Assembly: GCA_030754595.1 (NCBI GenBank) | Contig: JASLZZ010000116.1 | Coordinates: forward strand, 1 to 62,768 | Direction: 5' to 3' | Source of the DNA: Nitrospinota bacterium | GTDB lineage: Bacteria > UBA8248 | DNA: 62,768 nucleotides | Shown: positions 2,435-12,100 of the stretch, in pieces | Numbering within the stretch: position 1 is the first letter of the stretch | Layout: the number at the start of each line of letters is the position of its first letter | Position numbers and translations under genes: made by a program | Notes under the pieces: generated by a model | Database searches by the model: none | Told to the model about the DNA's origin: nothing | Seen by the model: the letters and a program-made list of their open reading frames with translations, nothing else

Positions 2435-3091
<657 letters not shown>

Positions 3092-3100
3092 ACATCCCAT

Positions 3101-3152
3101 AACAAAAAACCCCGGCGGCTTCCGAGAAAGGCCGTCGGGATTTTTGTTTTGT
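3101..3152 (+). terminator. intrinsic terminator, probably bidirectional
   Basis: A-tract, stem CCCGGCGGCTT/AGGCCGTCGGG, T-tract, immediately after the prx stop. Confidence 0.7.
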
Positions 3153-3180
3153 CAGCCAAGAACTAAAACCTGACCGCACA

Positions 3181-3313
3181 AGCAGATTCTTCTCTCGCTG
3201 CGCTCGTTCAGAATGACAACTTAGTCTTTTGTTCCTTTCATTCTGAGGCAACTTTATTTTTTGTTCCTGTCATTCTGAGCGGAGGGCTAAAGGCCCGGAG
3301 TGAAGAATCTGCT
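3181..3313. repeat. REP/REPIN-like inverted palindromic element
   Basis: AGCAGATTCTTC...CAGAATGACA (3181-3218) is inverted against TGTCATTCTG...GAAGAATCTGCT (3268-3313). A partial third copy TTTGTTCCTTTCATTCTGAG lies at ~3228. Confidence 0.7.
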
Positions 3314-3431
3314 TTTTCCGCGATGCCTGCCCGCGCGCTCACCCCCGACACCCGCGCGTAATTCCACCCCGTCTGAAACGGGGTGGCCTCCCAGGTCTCG
3401 GGGCCGTGCTTATGGCCCGCCGCCTCCGGGT

Positions 3432-4175
3432 CTAGGGGGCGTTTCCGGCCTCGTGCTCGATGAGGGCCGCCTTGAGCGCCACGCCCGATCCGAATCCTCC
3501 CAGCTCGCCCGAGCTGGCGATGACGCGGTGTCAGGGTATCAGGAGCGGCACCGGATTCCGGTGAAGCGCTCCGCCCACGGCGCGGACCGCGCGGGGCCGC
3601 CCGGCCTCGGCCGCCACCCATTTGTAGGAGCGCGTCTCTCCGTAGGGGATCCGCTCCGTCGCGCGGAGGACGTCGCGGCTGAAGGGGGTGAGCGCCGAGA
3701 GGTCCACCGCCAGATCGAATGTTTTCCGGCCGCCGCCGAGGTATTCGTCGATCTCCTTGAGGGCCCGGCGCGATACTTCACCCGCCCCGCCGAGATCGCT
3801 CTTGCCGTGCTTCGCCCCGCCTCCCCCCCGGAGCATCCGCACCGCCGAAACCTCGTCTCCCGAGTCGCCGACCTCTATTTCTTTCCGGACCCTGGCGATC
3901 CACTTTTCAACCACCGGGCCGGATGGTGCTGTATGTTTCATGGCGCTTTCCTCCTTTTTCGGTCTTATCGCCTCGGGGCCGTCAATCATTTCGGCGGCGC
4001 GAATTTCCCTTCTCGCCGCCAGGCCCAGCCGGTCCCGCATCCAGCTCGAAACCGGGAGCTGGGCCAGCTCCGCCGCCCGCCGCAGCGAGCCGAGAAGATC
4101 GAGAGAGACACGGATGTTCAGCGGATGCCCCAGACTTAATTTTCGCTTAATATTCACCTTAGTATCGTAACGCAA
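3432..4175 (-). CDS. ogt: selenocysteine-containing methylated-DNA-[protein]-cysteine S-methyltransferase (MGMT/Ogt), possibly with an N-terminal RHH domain; alternative start at 3941
   Basis: IPYGETRSYKWVA and RAVRAVGGALHRNPVPLLIP-TGA-HRVIASSGELGGFGSGVALKAALIEHE. The TGA (3531-3533) replaces the Cys of the PCHR motif, and the frame continues with canonical MGMT sequence to TAG at 3432-3434. Confidence 0.9.
3500..3517 (-). promoter_or_regulatory. bacterial SECIS-like hairpin for the ogt UGA
   Basis: mRNA CCAGCUC-GGGC-GAGCUGG: perfect 7-bp stem with a G-starting loop, beginning 13 nt after the UGA. Confidence 0.75.
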
Positions 4176-4234
4176 TTGGCAGTACGTATCAAGTGCGAAT
4201 TGTGGGTTTTTTTGGTGATCGGATTTTCCGGGCG

Positions 4235-4630
4235 CTACCCCGGGCTAATCGCGTCCCTCGCCCGCTCAAGCTCCAAGACTCCGGGCGGGCGCCCGCCGGA
4301 CTCGACCAGCGCGGCGTCTCCGCCCGCCAGCTCCATCCAAAGGACCGCCTCGCCGAGATCGGCGTCGGGTGAGATGCGCACCGCCCTCGCCGATGATCGA
4401 TCCTTTCCCGCAAGCACGTCCACCAACTCGCCCGCCGTCAAAAAAGTTTCCGGCGCCCGGATGCGCTCCGAAATCTCCTCTCCGCGAAGAAGCCCGATCA
4501 AACGTCCGCCCCCGGCGCACACCGCCGCCCAGGGTGCGTTTTTCCGGTTCATCGCGACCCAGGCCGCGCGCGCGTCATCCTCCGGAGCGACGATCGACAC
4601 CGCCTGCAAAAAACACTCGCGCACTTTCAT
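4235..4630 (-). CDS. CBS-domain pair protein (divergent)
   Basis: MKVRECF..SIVAPEDDARAAWVAM..GRLIGLL..LTAGELV..ISPDADLGEAVLWM..GRPPGVL fits a tandem CBS pattern. Confidence 0.7.
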   Translation of the reverse strand: MKVRECFLQAVSIVAPEDDARAAWVAMNRKNAPWAAVCAGGGRLIGLLRGEEISERIRAPETFLTAGELVDVLAGKDRSSARAVRISPDADLGEAVLWMELAGGDAALVESGGRPPGVLELERARDAISPG

Positions 4631-4682
4631 GGATGTCTCTATTTGTCCGGCGGGGAAATCTCTTTGCCGGGGGGGGGTTGGC

Positions 4683-5465
4683 CTACTCGCCCCGGAATTC
4701 GGGCTTGCGCTTTTCCTTGAACGCGGCGAGCGCCTCGGCAAAATCCTTCGTGAAATTCAGCGGCATCCGGACGGCATTCGAGAATTCGATGGCCTGGCTC
4801 ATCGGCATCCGGCTGGTCTGCTCGATGACCTTTTTCGCCCCGCGCACGCCGAGCGGGCCGTTGGCCGCGATGGAGCGGGCCAGGGCCAGGGCTTCTTCCA
4901 TCAGCTGATCGGCGGGATAGGCCCGGTTGACGAATCCGATGCGCTCGGCCTCCTCGCCGTCGAAACGGCGCGCCGTATAGATCAACTCCTTGGCAAGACC
5001 GGCGGGGATCACCCGGGGCAGGCGGACCGTCCCTCCCGCGCCGGGAAAAACGCCAAGCGCGGTTTCGGGAAAACAAAGGGTCGCATCGGCGGCGGCGAGG
5101 CGGATATCGCAGGCGAGGGAGATCTCCATCCCCCAGCCGAAGGTGTGGCCGTTGATAGCGGCGATGGTGGGCATGGGAAGATTCTCCCACCGGGTGACGG
5201 TCTCCATGCCGAGAAGTTGATACCGGTCGGCGTCTTCTTTCGTGTGGGTGGCGCTTTCCTTGAGGTCGCGGCCCGTGCTGAAGGCGCGCCCTTCGCCGGT
5301 CAGAACGACGACGCGCACTTCTTTTTCTCCGGCGAGCGCCGCGCCGAGCTCGGTGAACTCCTCGGCGAGGTTCATGCCGAGGGCGTTAAGGCGCTCCGGG
5401 CGGTTGATCGCCACCCGGGCGATACCCTCGTCAACCGCGTATTTGATCTCCGTGAATTCGCGCAC
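4683..5465 (-). CDS. enoyl-CoA hydratase/isomerase (crotonase family)
   Basis: INRPERLNAL, AFSTGRDL, AAINGHTFGWGMEISLACD, FPETALGVFPGAGG, AFKEKRKPEFRG. Confidence 0.95.
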   Translation of the reverse strand: MREFTEIKYAVDEGIARVAINRPERLNALGMNLAEEFTELGAALAGEKEVRVVVLTGEGRAFSTGRDLKESATHTKEDADRYQLLGMETVTRWENLPMPTIAAINGHTFGWGMEISLACDIRLAAADATLCFPETALGVFPGAGGTVRLPRVIPAGLAKELIYTARRFDGEEAERIGFVNRAYPADQLMEEALALARSIAANGPLGVRGAKKVIEQTSRMPMSQAIEFSNAVRMPLNFTKDFAEALAAFKEKRKPEFRGE

Positions 5466-5501: not shown

Positions 5502-6032
5502 TCAGTTTTTGAGCTGTCCGGCCACCTCGTCCACGAATCCGAGCGTCACCGATTTCATTTCATCGGCGCTCAGATTGCTGACCGGATGCGGAAGTTTGAC
5601 GTAGGGGTGGCCTTCCATCCCCTTGCCCTTGAACTGAAAGTCCGCCGCCGTCCTGAAGGCCTCGGTGATCACCGTGGTGGAGGGGACTCCGCGTTTCTCG
5701 AACTCAACCGTGTCGTGCACACTGCACAACGTGCAGGAGCCTCAGCCCCCGAGGGCGCATATCACCACATCGCACTGGTCGGCCATCTCCGCGATCATCT
5801 CGTCCGGAGCCGGCTTCGAGTAGTGCTCCTTGCGGCGCACGACCACTTCCTTGACGCCGTATTTCTCGCGCAGCGACTCCCCCAACGTCTCCAGGATGAC
5901 GTCGGCCTGCTCCTTGGTGTTGTCGAGAACACCGACCACTTTCCCGCTCAGGTCCGGGGGACGGGCGGCGAGAGCCACCGCCTTGCTCACGCTCCCCGCC
6001 GTGGGATCGACAAAATCCATCTTCACCGTCAT
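5502..6032 (-). CDS. UGSC-family selenoprotein (176 aa, Sec97)
   Basis: ORFs 5742..6056 and 5502..5729 are in one frame and joined through TGA at 5742-5744: CDVVICALGG-U-GSCTLCSVHDTVEFEKRGVP. Contains LSGKVVGVLDNTK and LPHPVSNL motifs; RBS AAGGAG before ATG 6032. Confidence 0.92.
5712..5730 (-). promoter_or_regulatory. bacterial SECIS-like hairpin for the UGSC UGA
   Basis: mRNA GUUGUGCA-GUG-UGCACGAC: 8-bp stem (one G-U pair) with a G-starting loop, beginning 11 nt after the UGA. Confidence 0.7.
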
Positions 6033-6239
6033 GGCATGTCTCCTTTTCGGAATCATTCAAAGAATAGGCGGCTATCATATTCCCGGGCGAAGGGGCTGTC
6101 CACTGACCGAGAGGGCCCGCCCGAAAACCTCCCCTTCTCCCGCCGGGCATTTTATGCGAAAATCCCCCTCTCGCGGGCGAGGCCGACCACCCCCCGCCGG
6201 ACACCCTCATTTCAAACGCCGATCCCATGGAGCGATGCC

Positions 6240-8669: not shown

Positions 8670-9698
8670 CTAGGCCTCGAAGCGCCGCGACACGGGGCGA
8701 CTTGCGCCGTTCCACCCGTGCATCACCGCGCTGATGGGTCCGGGGTTTCCGCCCGCGACGATGATCATGAGGTCTTCGGGCGCCTTGATGGTCGGGACGA
8801 AGAACGAGTCGTCGCCCAAATCGACCTCGATGGGCAGGTCCTTGATCCGGTCCTCAAGGTAGCCGCCGCCGGTTTTGAGCTCGCCGAGGGTCTTGCCCGC
8901 CTTCTCGTAGAGCCATTTATGAACGTCTGTCTTGCTCCATCCCGCGGCGGCGCAGATTTTCGCGTGGTCCGGGCTGATCGCCACCACCAGATCCGACCGC
9001 CTGAGGGCGTTCATGCACCCGAGGTAGGCCATGGCGTCCACCGGACCGGCGAGCAGGGTTTCGGGATCGCGGCTCATATCGTCGAAAACGAGTTTTGGAT
9101 TCTCGCAGGCGACGACGGTGACCGCGTTGTCCCCGGCGGCATGGCCCCTCGTCACCGAAAGCGTCTCCCAGGGGCTGTCGCCTTCGTTCTCGCGGATGCA
9201 GTAGGTATAGCGCGAGGGTTGAGAGAAAGTGCTCATCGAGGTGACGCCCGGAATCCCCGCTCCGAGGTTCATGAGCATGAGCCGGATCGCGCGGCCGATG
9301 GTGGCGTTCGCCCGAAAGCCCGGACCGAAACAGCCCGAGCCGCCGTGCAGGCCGATTTTCTTGGCATAGGGGCCGTTAAATATCATGAGCGGGGCGGCGC
9401 TGTGCATCGTCGCCTGAACGCCGTTTATGTTGAAGGGCGGCTCGAGGATGGCCTCGATTCCGGCGAGGACGGCCGTAAGATATTCAGGCCTGCAGCCAGC
9501 CATGACCGCGTGTGTCGCCACCATTCGGACGCTCGCCGGCTCGTTCGCGGGCGGCACCTCGCCGACGAACGCTTCCGGGTCGCGGGAGGTTCCGGTCAAC
9601 ATGTCCTCGATCCGCCCTTCGGTCGGAATGACGACCGGCAGACCGTCCGACCAGGGTTTGTCGAAAAAAAACTCGAATTCATCGTCAGGCAAAGTCAC
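8670..9698 (-). CDS. uncharacterised 'DGLPVVPPT' protein (UGSC-associated type), paralog 1
   Basis: WSDGLPVVIPT, HAVMAGCRPEYL, GCFGPGFRANATIGRA, IIVAGG; GTG start after GAAAGGA. Confidence 0.8.
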   Translation of the reverse strand: MTLPDDEFEFFFDKPWSDGLPVVIPTEGRIEDMLTGTSRDPEAFVGEVPPANEPASVRMVATHAVMAGCRPEYLTAVLAGIEAILEPPFNINGVQATMHSAAPLMIFNGPYAKKIGLHGGSGCFGPGFRANATIGRAIRLMLMNLGAGIPGVTSMSTFSQPSRYTYCIRENEGDSPWETLSVTRGHAAGDNAVTVVACENPKLVFDDMSRDPETLLAGPVDAMAYLGCMNALRRSDLVVAISPDHAKICAAAGWSKTDVHKWLYEKAGKTLGELKTGGGYLEDRIKDLPIEVDLGDDSFFVPTIKAPEDLMIIVAGGNPGPISAVMHGWNGASRPVSRRFEA

Positions 9699-9740
9699 AA
9701 TGATTTTCCTTTCCAGGCGGGACTCCTCCCGAATCAACCG

Positions 9741-10763
9741 CTAAACGGAATACGCCCGCGACACGGCGCGGCTACCGCCGTTCCAGCCGTGCATGACCGC
9801 GCTGTGCGGGCCGGGGGCGCCGCCGGCAACGATAATGTGCGAATCGGTCGGATCCTTGATCAGGGGCACAAAATAATCGTCGTTTTCGAGATCAACCGCA
9901 AACGGGAGATTCTTCATCCACTCCTCGCGCCACTGGCCCGCCCGCTTGAGGTCGCCGAGCCTTCGGCCCGCGAGCGTGCACAGGCGGCCGCGCACCTCTT
10001 CGCGAGAGAGATCGGAGCAGATGGCCGCCTGCTGGGGCGAGAGGGCGAGGACGAGATCCGAGCGCACCCACTGGTTCCAGCAGCCGAGATGCGACATCGT
10101 GTCGGCGATGCTGAAGAAAAGCTGCTCGGGGCCGCGGGCGTAGTTGTCCACCACGAGATGGGGGTTTTCGCAGGCGACCGCCGTCACGACATTTTCGCCG
10201 GACGCGTAGCCCCGGCTGGCCGAAAACGCCTCCCAGGGGCTCTCGGCCTCGTTCTCGGCGATGCAGAATGTGTACTTTGACGGCTGGCCGAAGGTGCTCA
10301 TCGAAACCACGCCGGGGATCCCCCCGCCCAGGTTCAGGAGCATGAGCCTTATCGCCCGGCCTATCGTCGCGTTCGCCCGGAAACCGGGGCCGAAGCACCC
10401 CCGCCCGCCATACAGGCCTATCCGCCGGGCATGGGGGCCGTTGACGATGAGCAGCGGCGCCGAGCTGTTCATCGAGCCCTGGAGGCCGTTGATCCCGAAT
10501 CGCTCGTCCAGGATAGCTTCCATCCCCGCCAGTACGACGGGAAGATACTCGGGCAGGCAACCGGCCATCACGGCATGCGCCGCGATACTGTGGACGTTCG
10601 CCGCCGCGAAGGCGGGGGGTATCTCGCCCACCGGCTCGTCCTGCCCGCGCGAGGTTCCCTCGAGCATCCGGGCGATGCGCTCCTCGGTCGGCGGCACGAC
10701 CGGCAGACCGTCCGACCAGGATTTGTCGAAAAAAAACTCGAATTCATCGTCAGGCAAGGTCAC
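9741..10763 (-). CDS. uncharacterised 'DGLPVVPPT' protein, paralog 2
   Basis: Same motifs; the leader and first codons are nearly identical to paralog 1. Confidence 0.8.
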   Translation of the reverse strand: MTLPDDEFEFFFDKSWSDGLPVVPPTEERIARMLEGTSRGQDEPVGEIPPAFAAANVHSIAAHAVMAGCLPEYLPVVLAGMEAILDERFGINGLQGSMNSSAPLLIVNGPHARRIGLYGGRGCFGPGFRANATIGRAIRLMLLNLGGGIPGVVSMSTFGQPSKYTFCIAENEAESPWEAFSASRGYASGENVVTAVACENPHLVVDNYARGPEQLFFSIADTMSHLGCWNQWVRSDLVLALSPQQAAICSDLSREEVRGRLCTLAGRRLGDLKRAGQWREEWMKNLPFAVDLENDDYFVPLIKDPTDSHIIVAGGAPGPHSAVMHGWNGGSRAVSRAYSV

Positions 10764-10804
10764 AGCGATTTTCCTTTCCGGGCAGGACTCCCGCCGAAGC
10801 CGCC

Positions 10805-11833
10805 CTAGACGGAATACGCCCGCGACACGGCACGGCTACCCCCGCTCCAACCATGCATCACCGCCGTCTCGGGGCCGGGGACCCCGCCCGCGACGATGAT
10901 CTTCAAATCCCCGGGGTCTTTCACGGTAGGAACGAAAAAATCATCGTCGTCCAGATCGACGGGTATCGGCAGAGAGCGCATCCGCTCCTCCCGGAAGTTG
11001 CCGCCCCGCCGAAGATCTCCCACCCGCCGGCCCGCCATCTCGAGGAGGCGGCCGTGAACGTCTTCTTTCGAAAGGCCGTCCGCGGCGCAAATTTCCGCGT
11101 GCTGCGGGGCGAGGGCGACGACGAGGTCCGAGCGCGTCCAGTTGTTCCAGCTGCCCAGGTGGGCCATGGCGTCTGCGACCGCGATCAGATAACGGCTGGC
11201 GGTGCGGCTCGTGTCGTCGAAGACAAGCTGGGGGTTTTCGACGGCTACCAGGGTTACGGCATCCTCCCCCGGACGATGGCCCAGGCTCTCCGAAAGCGGG
11301 GGCCAGGAGCTTTCCTCTTCGTTCTCGCGGATGCAAAAGGTGTAGCGCGAAGGCTGGGAAAAGGTGCTCATCGAAGTGACTCCGGGGACCCCCGCCCCGA
11401 GATTCAGGAGGATGAGCCGGATCGCACGGCCGATGGTGGCGTTCGCACGGAAGCCGGGACCAAAACAACCGAGGCCCCCGTTGATGCCGATTTTTTCGGC
11501 ATAGGGGCCGTTCACGATCATCAGCGGCGCGACGGCGTGCATGGTGGCCTGAATGCCGTTGATGTTGAATGGCCCCTCGAGCATCGCCCCGGCGCCCGCC
11601 AGGACGACGGGAAGATACTCGGGTAGGCAACCGGCCATCACGGCATGAACCGCGATATCGCGGACGCTCGCCGCCTCCAGGGCGGGGGGTATCTCGCCCA
11701 CCGGCTCGTCCGGCCCGCGCGAGGTTCCCGCGAGCATCCGGGCGATGCGCTCCTCGGTCGGCGGCACGACCGGCAGGCCGTCCGACCAGGGCTTATCGAA
11801 GAAAAATTCGAACTCGTCCGATGGATCGATCAA
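10805..11833 (-). CDS. uncharacterised 'DGLPVVPPT' protein, paralog 3
   Basis: Same motifs; TTG start at 11833 follows the RBS GGAGGTG. Confidence 0.8.
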   Translation of the reverse strand: MIDPSDEFEFFFDKPWSDGLPVVPPTEERIARMLAGTSRGPDEPVGEIPPALEAASVRDIAVHAVMAGCLPEYLPVVLAGAGAMLEGPFNINGIQATMHAVAPLMIVNGPYAEKIGINGGLGCFGPGFRANATIGRAIRLILLNLGAGVPGVTSMSTFSQPSRYTFCIRENEEESSWPPLSESLGHRPGEDAVTLVAVENPQLVFDDTSRTASRYLIAVADAMAHLGSWNNWTRSDLVVALAPQHAEICAADGLSKEDVHGRLLEMAGRRVGDLRRGGNFREERMRSLPIPVDLDDDDFFVPTVKDPGDLKIIVAGGVPGPETAVMHGWSGGSRAVSRAYSV

Positions 11834-12100
11834 CCGACACCTCCAATTCTCGGCTGAGATAGTCCACGGCTGAGGGATGAGATGGGCCGCATCGAACACT
11901 CCTCCAAAAACGCGCGGGGGCGCTTGGTTTTTTTACGGGTGACCTTTTCTTCAGAGCCAGCAATTTACCGCCCGGAAACGTAAAGCACCAGCCTCGATTT
12001 TTTTCGCGGAGGGCGTTCGTGTGGCAAAATTGCGCACGAATCAAAATAAATTCCCGGCTATCCCTCAACCATCCCCCGGCTAAACCAAGGAGCTTGATAC

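Follow-up and report, generated by a model that had tools for sequence, protein, structure and literature searches.

The locus described here raises the question of whether a TGA codon at the alkyl-acceptor position of an O6-alkylguanine-DNA alkyltransferase (AGT) codes for selenocysteine (Sec), and what the gene that carries it does as a whole. It lies in a 62,768-nucleotide stretch of DNA from a Nitrospinota bacterium (GTDB UBA8248; contig JASLZZ010000116.1), which in its full length is referred to as the window. The minus-strand Ogt/MGMT gene, translated over 3941..3432, yields 169 amino acids with a single in-frame TGA in the context NPVPLLIP-U-HRVIASSGELGGFGSGVALKAALIEHE (the flanks also read NPVPLLIP-U-HRVIASSGELGGFG) and ends at a TAG. 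An earlier note on this DNA had reported that the Cys codon of the PCHR motif is TGA and that the conserved C-terminus continues in frame beyond it, and both observations hold, as the TGA (positions 3533-3531) is codon 137 of the 169-residue translation and the frame stays open to the TAG. This short coding sequence (3432..3941, minus strand), which starts at an internal ATG, comprises the AGT only and matches PF01035 with 107.7 bits (cut-off 27) and TIGR00589 with 102.6 (cut-off 46.4). The predicted structure of the AGT matches those of OGT proteins, with a Foldseek E-value of 2e-9 and a probability of 1.00 to M. tuberculosis OGT. A gap-free alignment of the active-site region with human AGT puts the TGA (3531..3533, minus strand) at Cys145, while the human Tyr114, Arg128 finger, Asn137 hinge, His146-Arg147, Lys165 and Glu172 correspond to Y178, R192, N201, H210, R211, K229 and E236 of the longer product described below; the equivalent of Tyr158 is a Phe. 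Equivalents of Tyr114, Arg128 and Asn137 are present in 42/43, 43/43 and 43/43 TGA-bearing AGTs of the class, respectively. ATL proteins have Trp or Ala in place of the nucleophile of the (I/V)PCHR(V/I) motif, whereas the codon at this position in the window is TGA, which probably specifies Sec. A general reassignment of TGA to Trp is ruled out, because TGA terminates genes in this genome and in its relatives.

The genome carries the machinery for Sec insertion, viz., tRNA-Sec (selC; 73.6 bits), selA, selB and selD, all over their cut-offs; the selD match (G000:C16:24543-25505, L019) itself holds one TGA and is likely a Sec form. UBA8248 is listed among the most selenoprotein-rich bacteria in the BSepDB report (PMC13326102, Table 2), and selA could be detected in 49 of the 51 genomes of the class that we compared. 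The earlier note had proposed to look for the TGA in orthologues, and a PF01035 match with TGA is present in 43/51 class genomes, at the acceptor codon in all 43. Among the remaining eight, five have a Cys form (G006, G010, G014, G017 and G026), two (G002 and G005) have only a paralogue-type AGT match and one 67%-complete genome has no match. The Cys orthologue of G010 (L055) is split over two frames by an apparent frameshift. Eleven genomes have no PF01035 match apart from the TGA copy; one of these is G028 (L054), where an apparent frameshift brings a stop 10 codons past the TGA. The genome of the window has a second AGT, of the Cys form, on contig C28. In four family members the orthologue is a Cys form even though selA is retained, so that Sec is dispensable, and we rejected the loss of Sec machinery as the cause of a reversion to Cys. 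Compared with 16 relatives, the part upstream of the TGA has an uncorrected pN/pS of 0.34 and the part downstream one of 0.35. At positions 3531-3533, no letters other than those of TGA are found in the contigs of four out of four run assemblies from four studies, two of which are possibly the source of this DNA itself. The runs containing the stretch are labeled marine or seawater, and only 13-15% of its sequence words occur in four RNA runs.

Downstream of the TGA, the perfect CCAGCTC-GGGC-GAGCTGG hairpin reported in the earlier note, 13 nucleotides away, is indeed present (3500..3517, minus strand) and forms a SECIS-like element with a 7-bp stem and a GGGC loop that starts 20 nucleotides after the UGA. 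By itself the hairpin of the window is unremarkable (z = -1.52; 14 of 200 shuffles fold equally well), and it becomes significant only across relatives. Taking the structure from the window and aligning 18 related genes (15 distinct), which are kin, all 105 cells of the stem are paired and 10 have changes on both sides; either value was reached by 0/500 shuffles, and controls in which the structure was slid along the alignment gave 25-54% pairing. Thus, the hairpin is conserved in orthologues, a point that the note had proposed to check, and covaries. An apical loop starting with G, on a stem-loop just past the UGA, is present and a simple hairpin rule is passed by 41/43 class genes. Such a rule is passed by 74/108 TGA-AGTs (from the 120 matches listed) versus 15/117 Cys-AGTs taken from a metagenome scan, and after synonymous recoding of the TGA-AGTs it is met by 21.6 ± 3.6 of 109. 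The perfect stem is absent from the four family members with Cys, and no Rfam family matched within the window. The UGA is thus very probably decoded as Sec, through the downstream hairpin and SelB, and the evidence from sequence supports a true AGT of the Sec form, which as a kind had been predicted previously. That the TGA is instead a nonsense mutation in a pseudogene, or a sequencing error, could be argued from the database copies, all of which stop at the Pro before TGA, from the second stop in G028 and from the insignificance of the window hairpin taken singly. This reading is extremely improbable and already contradicted by the class-wide occurrence of TGA at one codon, the covarying stem and equal selection on both sides, the agreement of four assemblies and the status of the TGA copy as sole AGT in 11 genomes. 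The earlier note had named Cys codons in all close relatives, a read error and relaxed selection downstream as signs against Sec; none of these was found, with TGA in most relatives (43/51), concordant assemblies and pN/pS equal across the codon (0.35 versus 0.34).

The coordinates that the earlier note gave for the gene, 3432..3941, are right for the short form but do not delimit the whole gene, as the frame is open upstream to a GTG at 4157. The AGT frame thus opens 72 codons before the internal ATG and encodes 241 amino acids (3432..4157, minus strand), comprising a ribbon-helix-helix (RHH)-like domain, a linker and the AGT with Sec209. This front of the gene, with the RHH-like domain, a promoter and a palindrome, was overlooked by that note. 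In G001, G003, G004 and G009 the first 55 residues are conserved, and all four of these fused relatives begin with an ATG at the position that the GTG has here. The internal ATG is preceded, at a distance of 8 nucleotides, by the Shine-Dalgarno sequence AGGAGG (3950..3955, minus strand), and a GGAG-type site stands ahead of the internal ATG in 5/5 fused genes. A profile search of the 51 class genomes found the fused form in five and a stand-alone paralogue of the domain in 12. The fusion is in frame in 5/5 genomes with this RHH type, with linkers of 57, 60, 57, 75 and 63 nucleotides; for each genome taken singly, a linker free of stops is not remarkable (P 0.49-0.64), and we therefore rejected it as proof of selection. 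At position 3982, within the linker, the window has T but all four run assemblies have C, which changes an Asp to Gly. The RHH region has a pN/pS of 0.30 compared with 0.23-0.27 for the AGT parts, purifying selection being alike in both. Among the best 120 database homologues, 13 clusters carry RHH and AGT together, all 13 ending at the Pro before TGA, and 0/91 full-length Cys matches have an RHH domain. The fused 241-residue frame is very likely translated, and two products, a long and a short form, are likely made, since the old internal start has kept its ribosome-binding site in 5/5 genes.

The RHH-like domain (4002..4124, minus strand) has the pattern of a strand (PLNIRVS), helix A and helix B. 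Its own best Pfam match, to a NikA-like family, has an E-value of 0.12, which is below the cut-off. At E≤0.001 there are 618 relatives of the domain, and 39 of the 44 that were scanned match NikA-like, TacA1, HicB, RHH or DUF6290 families with E≤0.01, all of which we take to be RHH folds. Its Atlas neighbors are NikA-like, RHH_1 and RHH_5 clusters at 0.92-0.93. Helices are predicted at residues 18-31 and 37-57. The RHH region is predicted to form a homodimer with a score of 0.80 against 0.00 for the best control, with an interface that includes residues 7-18 and helix B; the mark for a dimer is reached by 20/30 true pairs and 1/23 single chains, the contacts of separate runs agree by 98% and pLDDT is 84 or more. 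The score may in part reflect likeness to solved RHH dimers. Searches with the predicted monomer against solved structures, like a sequence search of the PDB, are less telling, in that Foldseek lists ORF56, Arc, NikR and omega, all with E>1, the best VIA match (Z 5.0) is an unrelated structure, and in the full-length model the RHH part has a pLDDT of <55.

Upstream of the GTG lies the sigma-70-like promoter TTGATA-17-TACGAT (4164..4192, minus strand), the only such site in 3000-4800, where 0.3 are expected. It ends 6 nucleotides before the start codon, a geometry expected of a leaderless transcript, and the transcript of the long form is likely leaderless. An imperfect palindrome, GTACTG-N7-CGTTAC (4167..4185, minus strand), spans the spacer and the -10 box and is a candidate operator. 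RHH autorepressors such as Arc, CopG and the NikA/TacA-like proteins combine a strand-helix-helix fold and dimerization with a palindrome over their own promoter. The window gene resembles them in its strand-helix-helix pattern, predicted dimer and palindrome over its own promoter but differs in the fusion to an AGT, as the RHH relatives, among the 150 matches listed, are almost all small stand-alone proteins of 50-130 residues. In the 3.55 Mb of the genome, only four sites lie within three mismatches of the 19-bp palindrome of the stand-alone RHH gene; three of these belong to that gene, and the fourth is 4167-4185. In 5/5 fusion genomes there is a single fused-type box, at this promoter, although the search pattern came from these five sites themselves and therefore demonstrates uniqueness rather than enrichment. 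The occurrence of one box per genome argues against a regulon, and we rejected a regulon or SOS-like box, the palindrome being found only at the two RHH promoters and exact TGCCAWTGGCA elsewhere at chance level; lexA is present separately in the genome. Three TGCCAWTGGCA palindromes lie upstream of the stand-alone RHH-like gene (G000:C126, about 3100-3430, L070, with 11 relatives), which in several genomes is oriented divergently to a gene of DnaJ type that has an HPD motif.

Five fused and seven stand-alone RHH promoters can be aligned in register at the -35 box, palindrome, -10 box and start codon, the alignment leaving out five of the 12 stand-alone loci, which have longer or differing leaders. 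The fused palindrome has drifted from that of the paralogue (15/18 match), and the strand reads LNIRVS in the fused protein and LQIRMN in the paralogue; both strand and palindrome diverged and were then conserved among the five fused genes. Because domain and promoter are homologous to those of the stand-alone paralogue and in register with them, it appears most likely that a promoter-plus-RHH cassette was duplicated ahead of the Sec-AGT, strand and box diverging together afterwards. The palindrome itself may simply have remained from the promoter that was duplicated. The same homology would suit a history in which the copied cassette merely supplied a promoter, the short form repairs DNA and the long form is no regulator. 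The strong internal ribosome-binding site in 5/5 fused genes, the restriction of the fusion to 5/51 genomes, probably by one event, and eight database clusters that gene callers begin at the internal ATG are in keeping with such a history. Yet the RHH region is under purifying selection at a synonymous divergence of 0.6-0.7, strand and palindrome left the sequence of the paralogue and then remained fixed among the five, and the reading frame was preserved across four different linker lengths, so that we consider the RHH part unlikely to be only a passenger on a real Sec-AGT. The fusion is not needed for Sec-AGT function, as 38/43 genomes with a TGA-AGT lack it.

We favor, with a probability of roughly 0.6, a joint model in which Sec-dependent repair is combined with autorepression. 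The AGT would flip O6-alkylguanine like other AGTs and transfer the alkyl group once and irreversibly to selenium, UGA being read as Sec through the hairpin and SelB. The leaderless transcript would give the long form, whose RHH dimer would repress the promoter of its own gene, and the internal ribosome-binding site would give a short form for repair only. Repression by the long form at the candidate palindrome is, on balance, probable, since a dimer bound there would overlap the -10 box. In the weakest step, which we put forward tentatively, alkylation of Sec would destabilize the AGT domain, remove the attached repressor and so lead to replacement of the spent enzyme. Such derepression after repair is plausible by analogy, because alkylated OGT proteins are destabilized (PMC5751216) and degraded (PMC10814553), and Cada2 is switched by methylation of its PCHR cysteine (PMC10957082). 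Whether the locus is a one-protein alkylation homeostat, in which the RHH-Sec-AGT occupies its own -10 box until selenium is alkylated while the internal start supplies the bulk of the repair form, is likewise doubtful; if true, it would constitute an adaptive response by derepression, and the selenoprotein would be a transcription factor that senses DNA damage.

Among known systems, the Caulobacter protein Cada2 (Kamat et al. 2024, PMC10957082) also joins a DNA-binding region to a PF01035 domain, binds its own promoter and is switched by methylation at PCHR, but it has a Cys acceptor and activates a regulon through a helix-turn-helix, whereas the window protein is RHH-like, likely has Sec as acceptor and has a single site per genome, over the -10 box, in the geometry of a repressor. 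E. coli Ada is similar in joining a regulator to an AGT domain and different in that it switches on Cys38 rather than the PCHR cysteine, as stated in the same source. Neither an Ada zinc-binding domain nor an AraC-type helix-turn-helix domain was found in the 241-residue protein, and the Ada model scores 73 bits against 345. Thus, the window protein is not a member of the Ada or Cada2 regulators, though it may conceivably work alike. The Ada zinc domain was found in 0/5 fusion genomes but was also missing from 20 of the 46 others, which makes the RHH domain a weak candidate for a replacement of Ada.

A product ending at the UGA deserves separate consideration. The UGA lies past both the RHH and the helix-turn-helix of the AGT, so that a 208-residue product would retain both DNA-binding parts, and a Cys AGT paralogue that could take over repair is present in 5/5 fusion genomes; the truncated protein, an RHH joined to an inactive AGT, might then be a repressor that accumulates at low selenium and turns the gene off. 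Beyond the position of the UGA and the Cys paralogue this is pure conjecture, a truncated AGT domain would likely be unstable and the hairpin is conserved for read-through, all of which makes such a repressor improbable.

As to what selenium contributes under the joint model of Sec repair and autorepression, the benefit is likely a ready-ionized nucleophile rather than turnover, since an engineered human AGT with Sec at position 145 stays active in the N137A background where Cys fails (Haruna et al. 2014, PMC4150793). Faster transfer through Sec is plausible. The engineered protein has Sec at the acceptor, protects E. coli from MNNG and so establishes that repair of MNNG damage in vivo is within the reach of such a protein, but it is artificial and SECIS-free and was followed by survival assay only. 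The relaxation that its rescue of N137A would allow is not seen in natural genes, as 43/43 TGA-AGTs of the class keep Asn137, and we thus rejected the idea that Sec relaxes the need for this residue. The earlier note had offered two further possibilities involving new chemistry: that the substrate differs, or that the methylated selenol is recycled and the enzyme turns over. The long retention of a costly residue across the class and many phyla would be consistent with this, as would the Phe at the Tyr158 position in 103/109 TGA-AGTs among the matches listed, compared with Tyr in at least 79/117 Cys-AGTs, and the presence of a cupin gene after the AGT in many members of the family. However, the residues for base flipping and DNA binding are unaltered and the pocket is Ogt-like, which does not bear out a different substrate; no demethylating partner travels with the gene, which does not bear out recycling; and Sec and Cys swap within one family. 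Phe is frequent in Cys forms too (91/214 rows), a phylogenetically independent comparison comprises five pairs only (median p 0.5), and a Y139F change is expected to affect catalysis little (PMC5751216). Sec-Phe co-evolution was accordingly set aside, the raw association being strong and its independence from ancestry not established. The cupin, which is cysteine-dioxygenase-like, follows Sec and Cys forms alike and is intact after the AGT in many relatives (for example at L027:2081-2653, CDO_I match E 0.002, below the cut-off), but in this genome about 570 bases are deleted and only its last 20 codons are left (3339..3402, minus strand). On these grounds new chemistry has little chance of being the explanation. 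On the other side of the cupin remnant, a 1-Cys peroxiredoxin gene (2435-3091, plus strand) converges on the AGT, and a terminator-like stem at 3111-3139, readable on both strands, lies between the two genes.

The Sec-AGT extends well beyond the class. In a pattern scan of GTDB genomes, 109 of the 120 matches listed are AGTs with TGA at the acceptor, those outside the class being called from the acceptor codon and AGT sequence alone, and at least 93 of 105 rows of the matches listed fall by record label into ten named phyla, of which Thermodesulfobacteriota (34) and Bacillota (23) are the most frequent. Sec and Cys states interchange with 25-26 changes, versus about 98 in shuffled data, on an unrooted tree of 89 residues on which gains and losses are not separable. 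An RHH domain was found at one of the 109 other Sec-AGT loci, 40 of the 120 listed loci having too little upstream DNA. A distinct short group of TGA-AGTs (NPYAPEVP-U-HRV; L078, L097, L100, L104, L105, L113, L156, L161, L162 and others) has a longer C-terminus and no more than 55-105 residues ahead of the TGA, includes many Desulfobacterales-type records and with about 20 rows forms a clade of its own.

A Sec-AGT was predicted in 2005 (CHY0809, PMC1287953), when it was termed unique to one species and recent, was found again in PMC1976440 and PMC2398784 and in algae (PMC7539508), and appears in the tables of PMC9312934 and PMC13188914. The window gene shares with CHY0809 the UGA at the PCHR cysteine, a stem-loop downstream and Sec machinery in the genome; it differs in being near-universal in its class, with relatives in ten named phyla, and in its RHH fusion, none being described for CHY0809 in the available text of that report. 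The Sec-AGT is thus far commoner than the 2005 report and an ocean count of 1 in 2,880 implied. The earlier note was right that Sec forms had been predicted, but its remark that they are not biochemically characterized holds only in part, given the engineered U145 protein (PMC4150793); a literature search, with most subscription journals outside its reach, found no test of a natural Sec-AGT. A search of the same scope for an alkyltransferase with a ribbon-helix-helix found no report. The Sec-AGT therefore belongs to a catalogued kind, while its RHH-fused form is unreported within the literature searched. Most selenoproteins of known function are oxidoreductases (PMC2398784), whereas here a stoichiometric, non-redox Sec is kept across a whole bacterial class, and natural Sec/Cys pairs (G007 and G020 versus G017) offer a way to study the contribution of selenium purely as a nucleophile. 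Every close database copy examined is cut at the UGA, so that these repair genes appear broken in annotation. If the RHH fusion switches on alkylation, it would add a third adaptive-response architecture to those of Ada and Cada2; otherwise, the locus would still hold a solid, catalogued selenoprotein with an unusual autoregulatory head.

The window contains a further selenoprotein gene at 5502-6056 (minus strand), in which two ORFs are joined through a TGA at 5744-5742 to give a UGSC-family protein (NF041046, 147 bits; cut-off 125). Upstream of the region of this gene are three tandem paralogous ORFs of 340-364 residues (…KPWSDGLPVV…; 8670-11899, minus strand).
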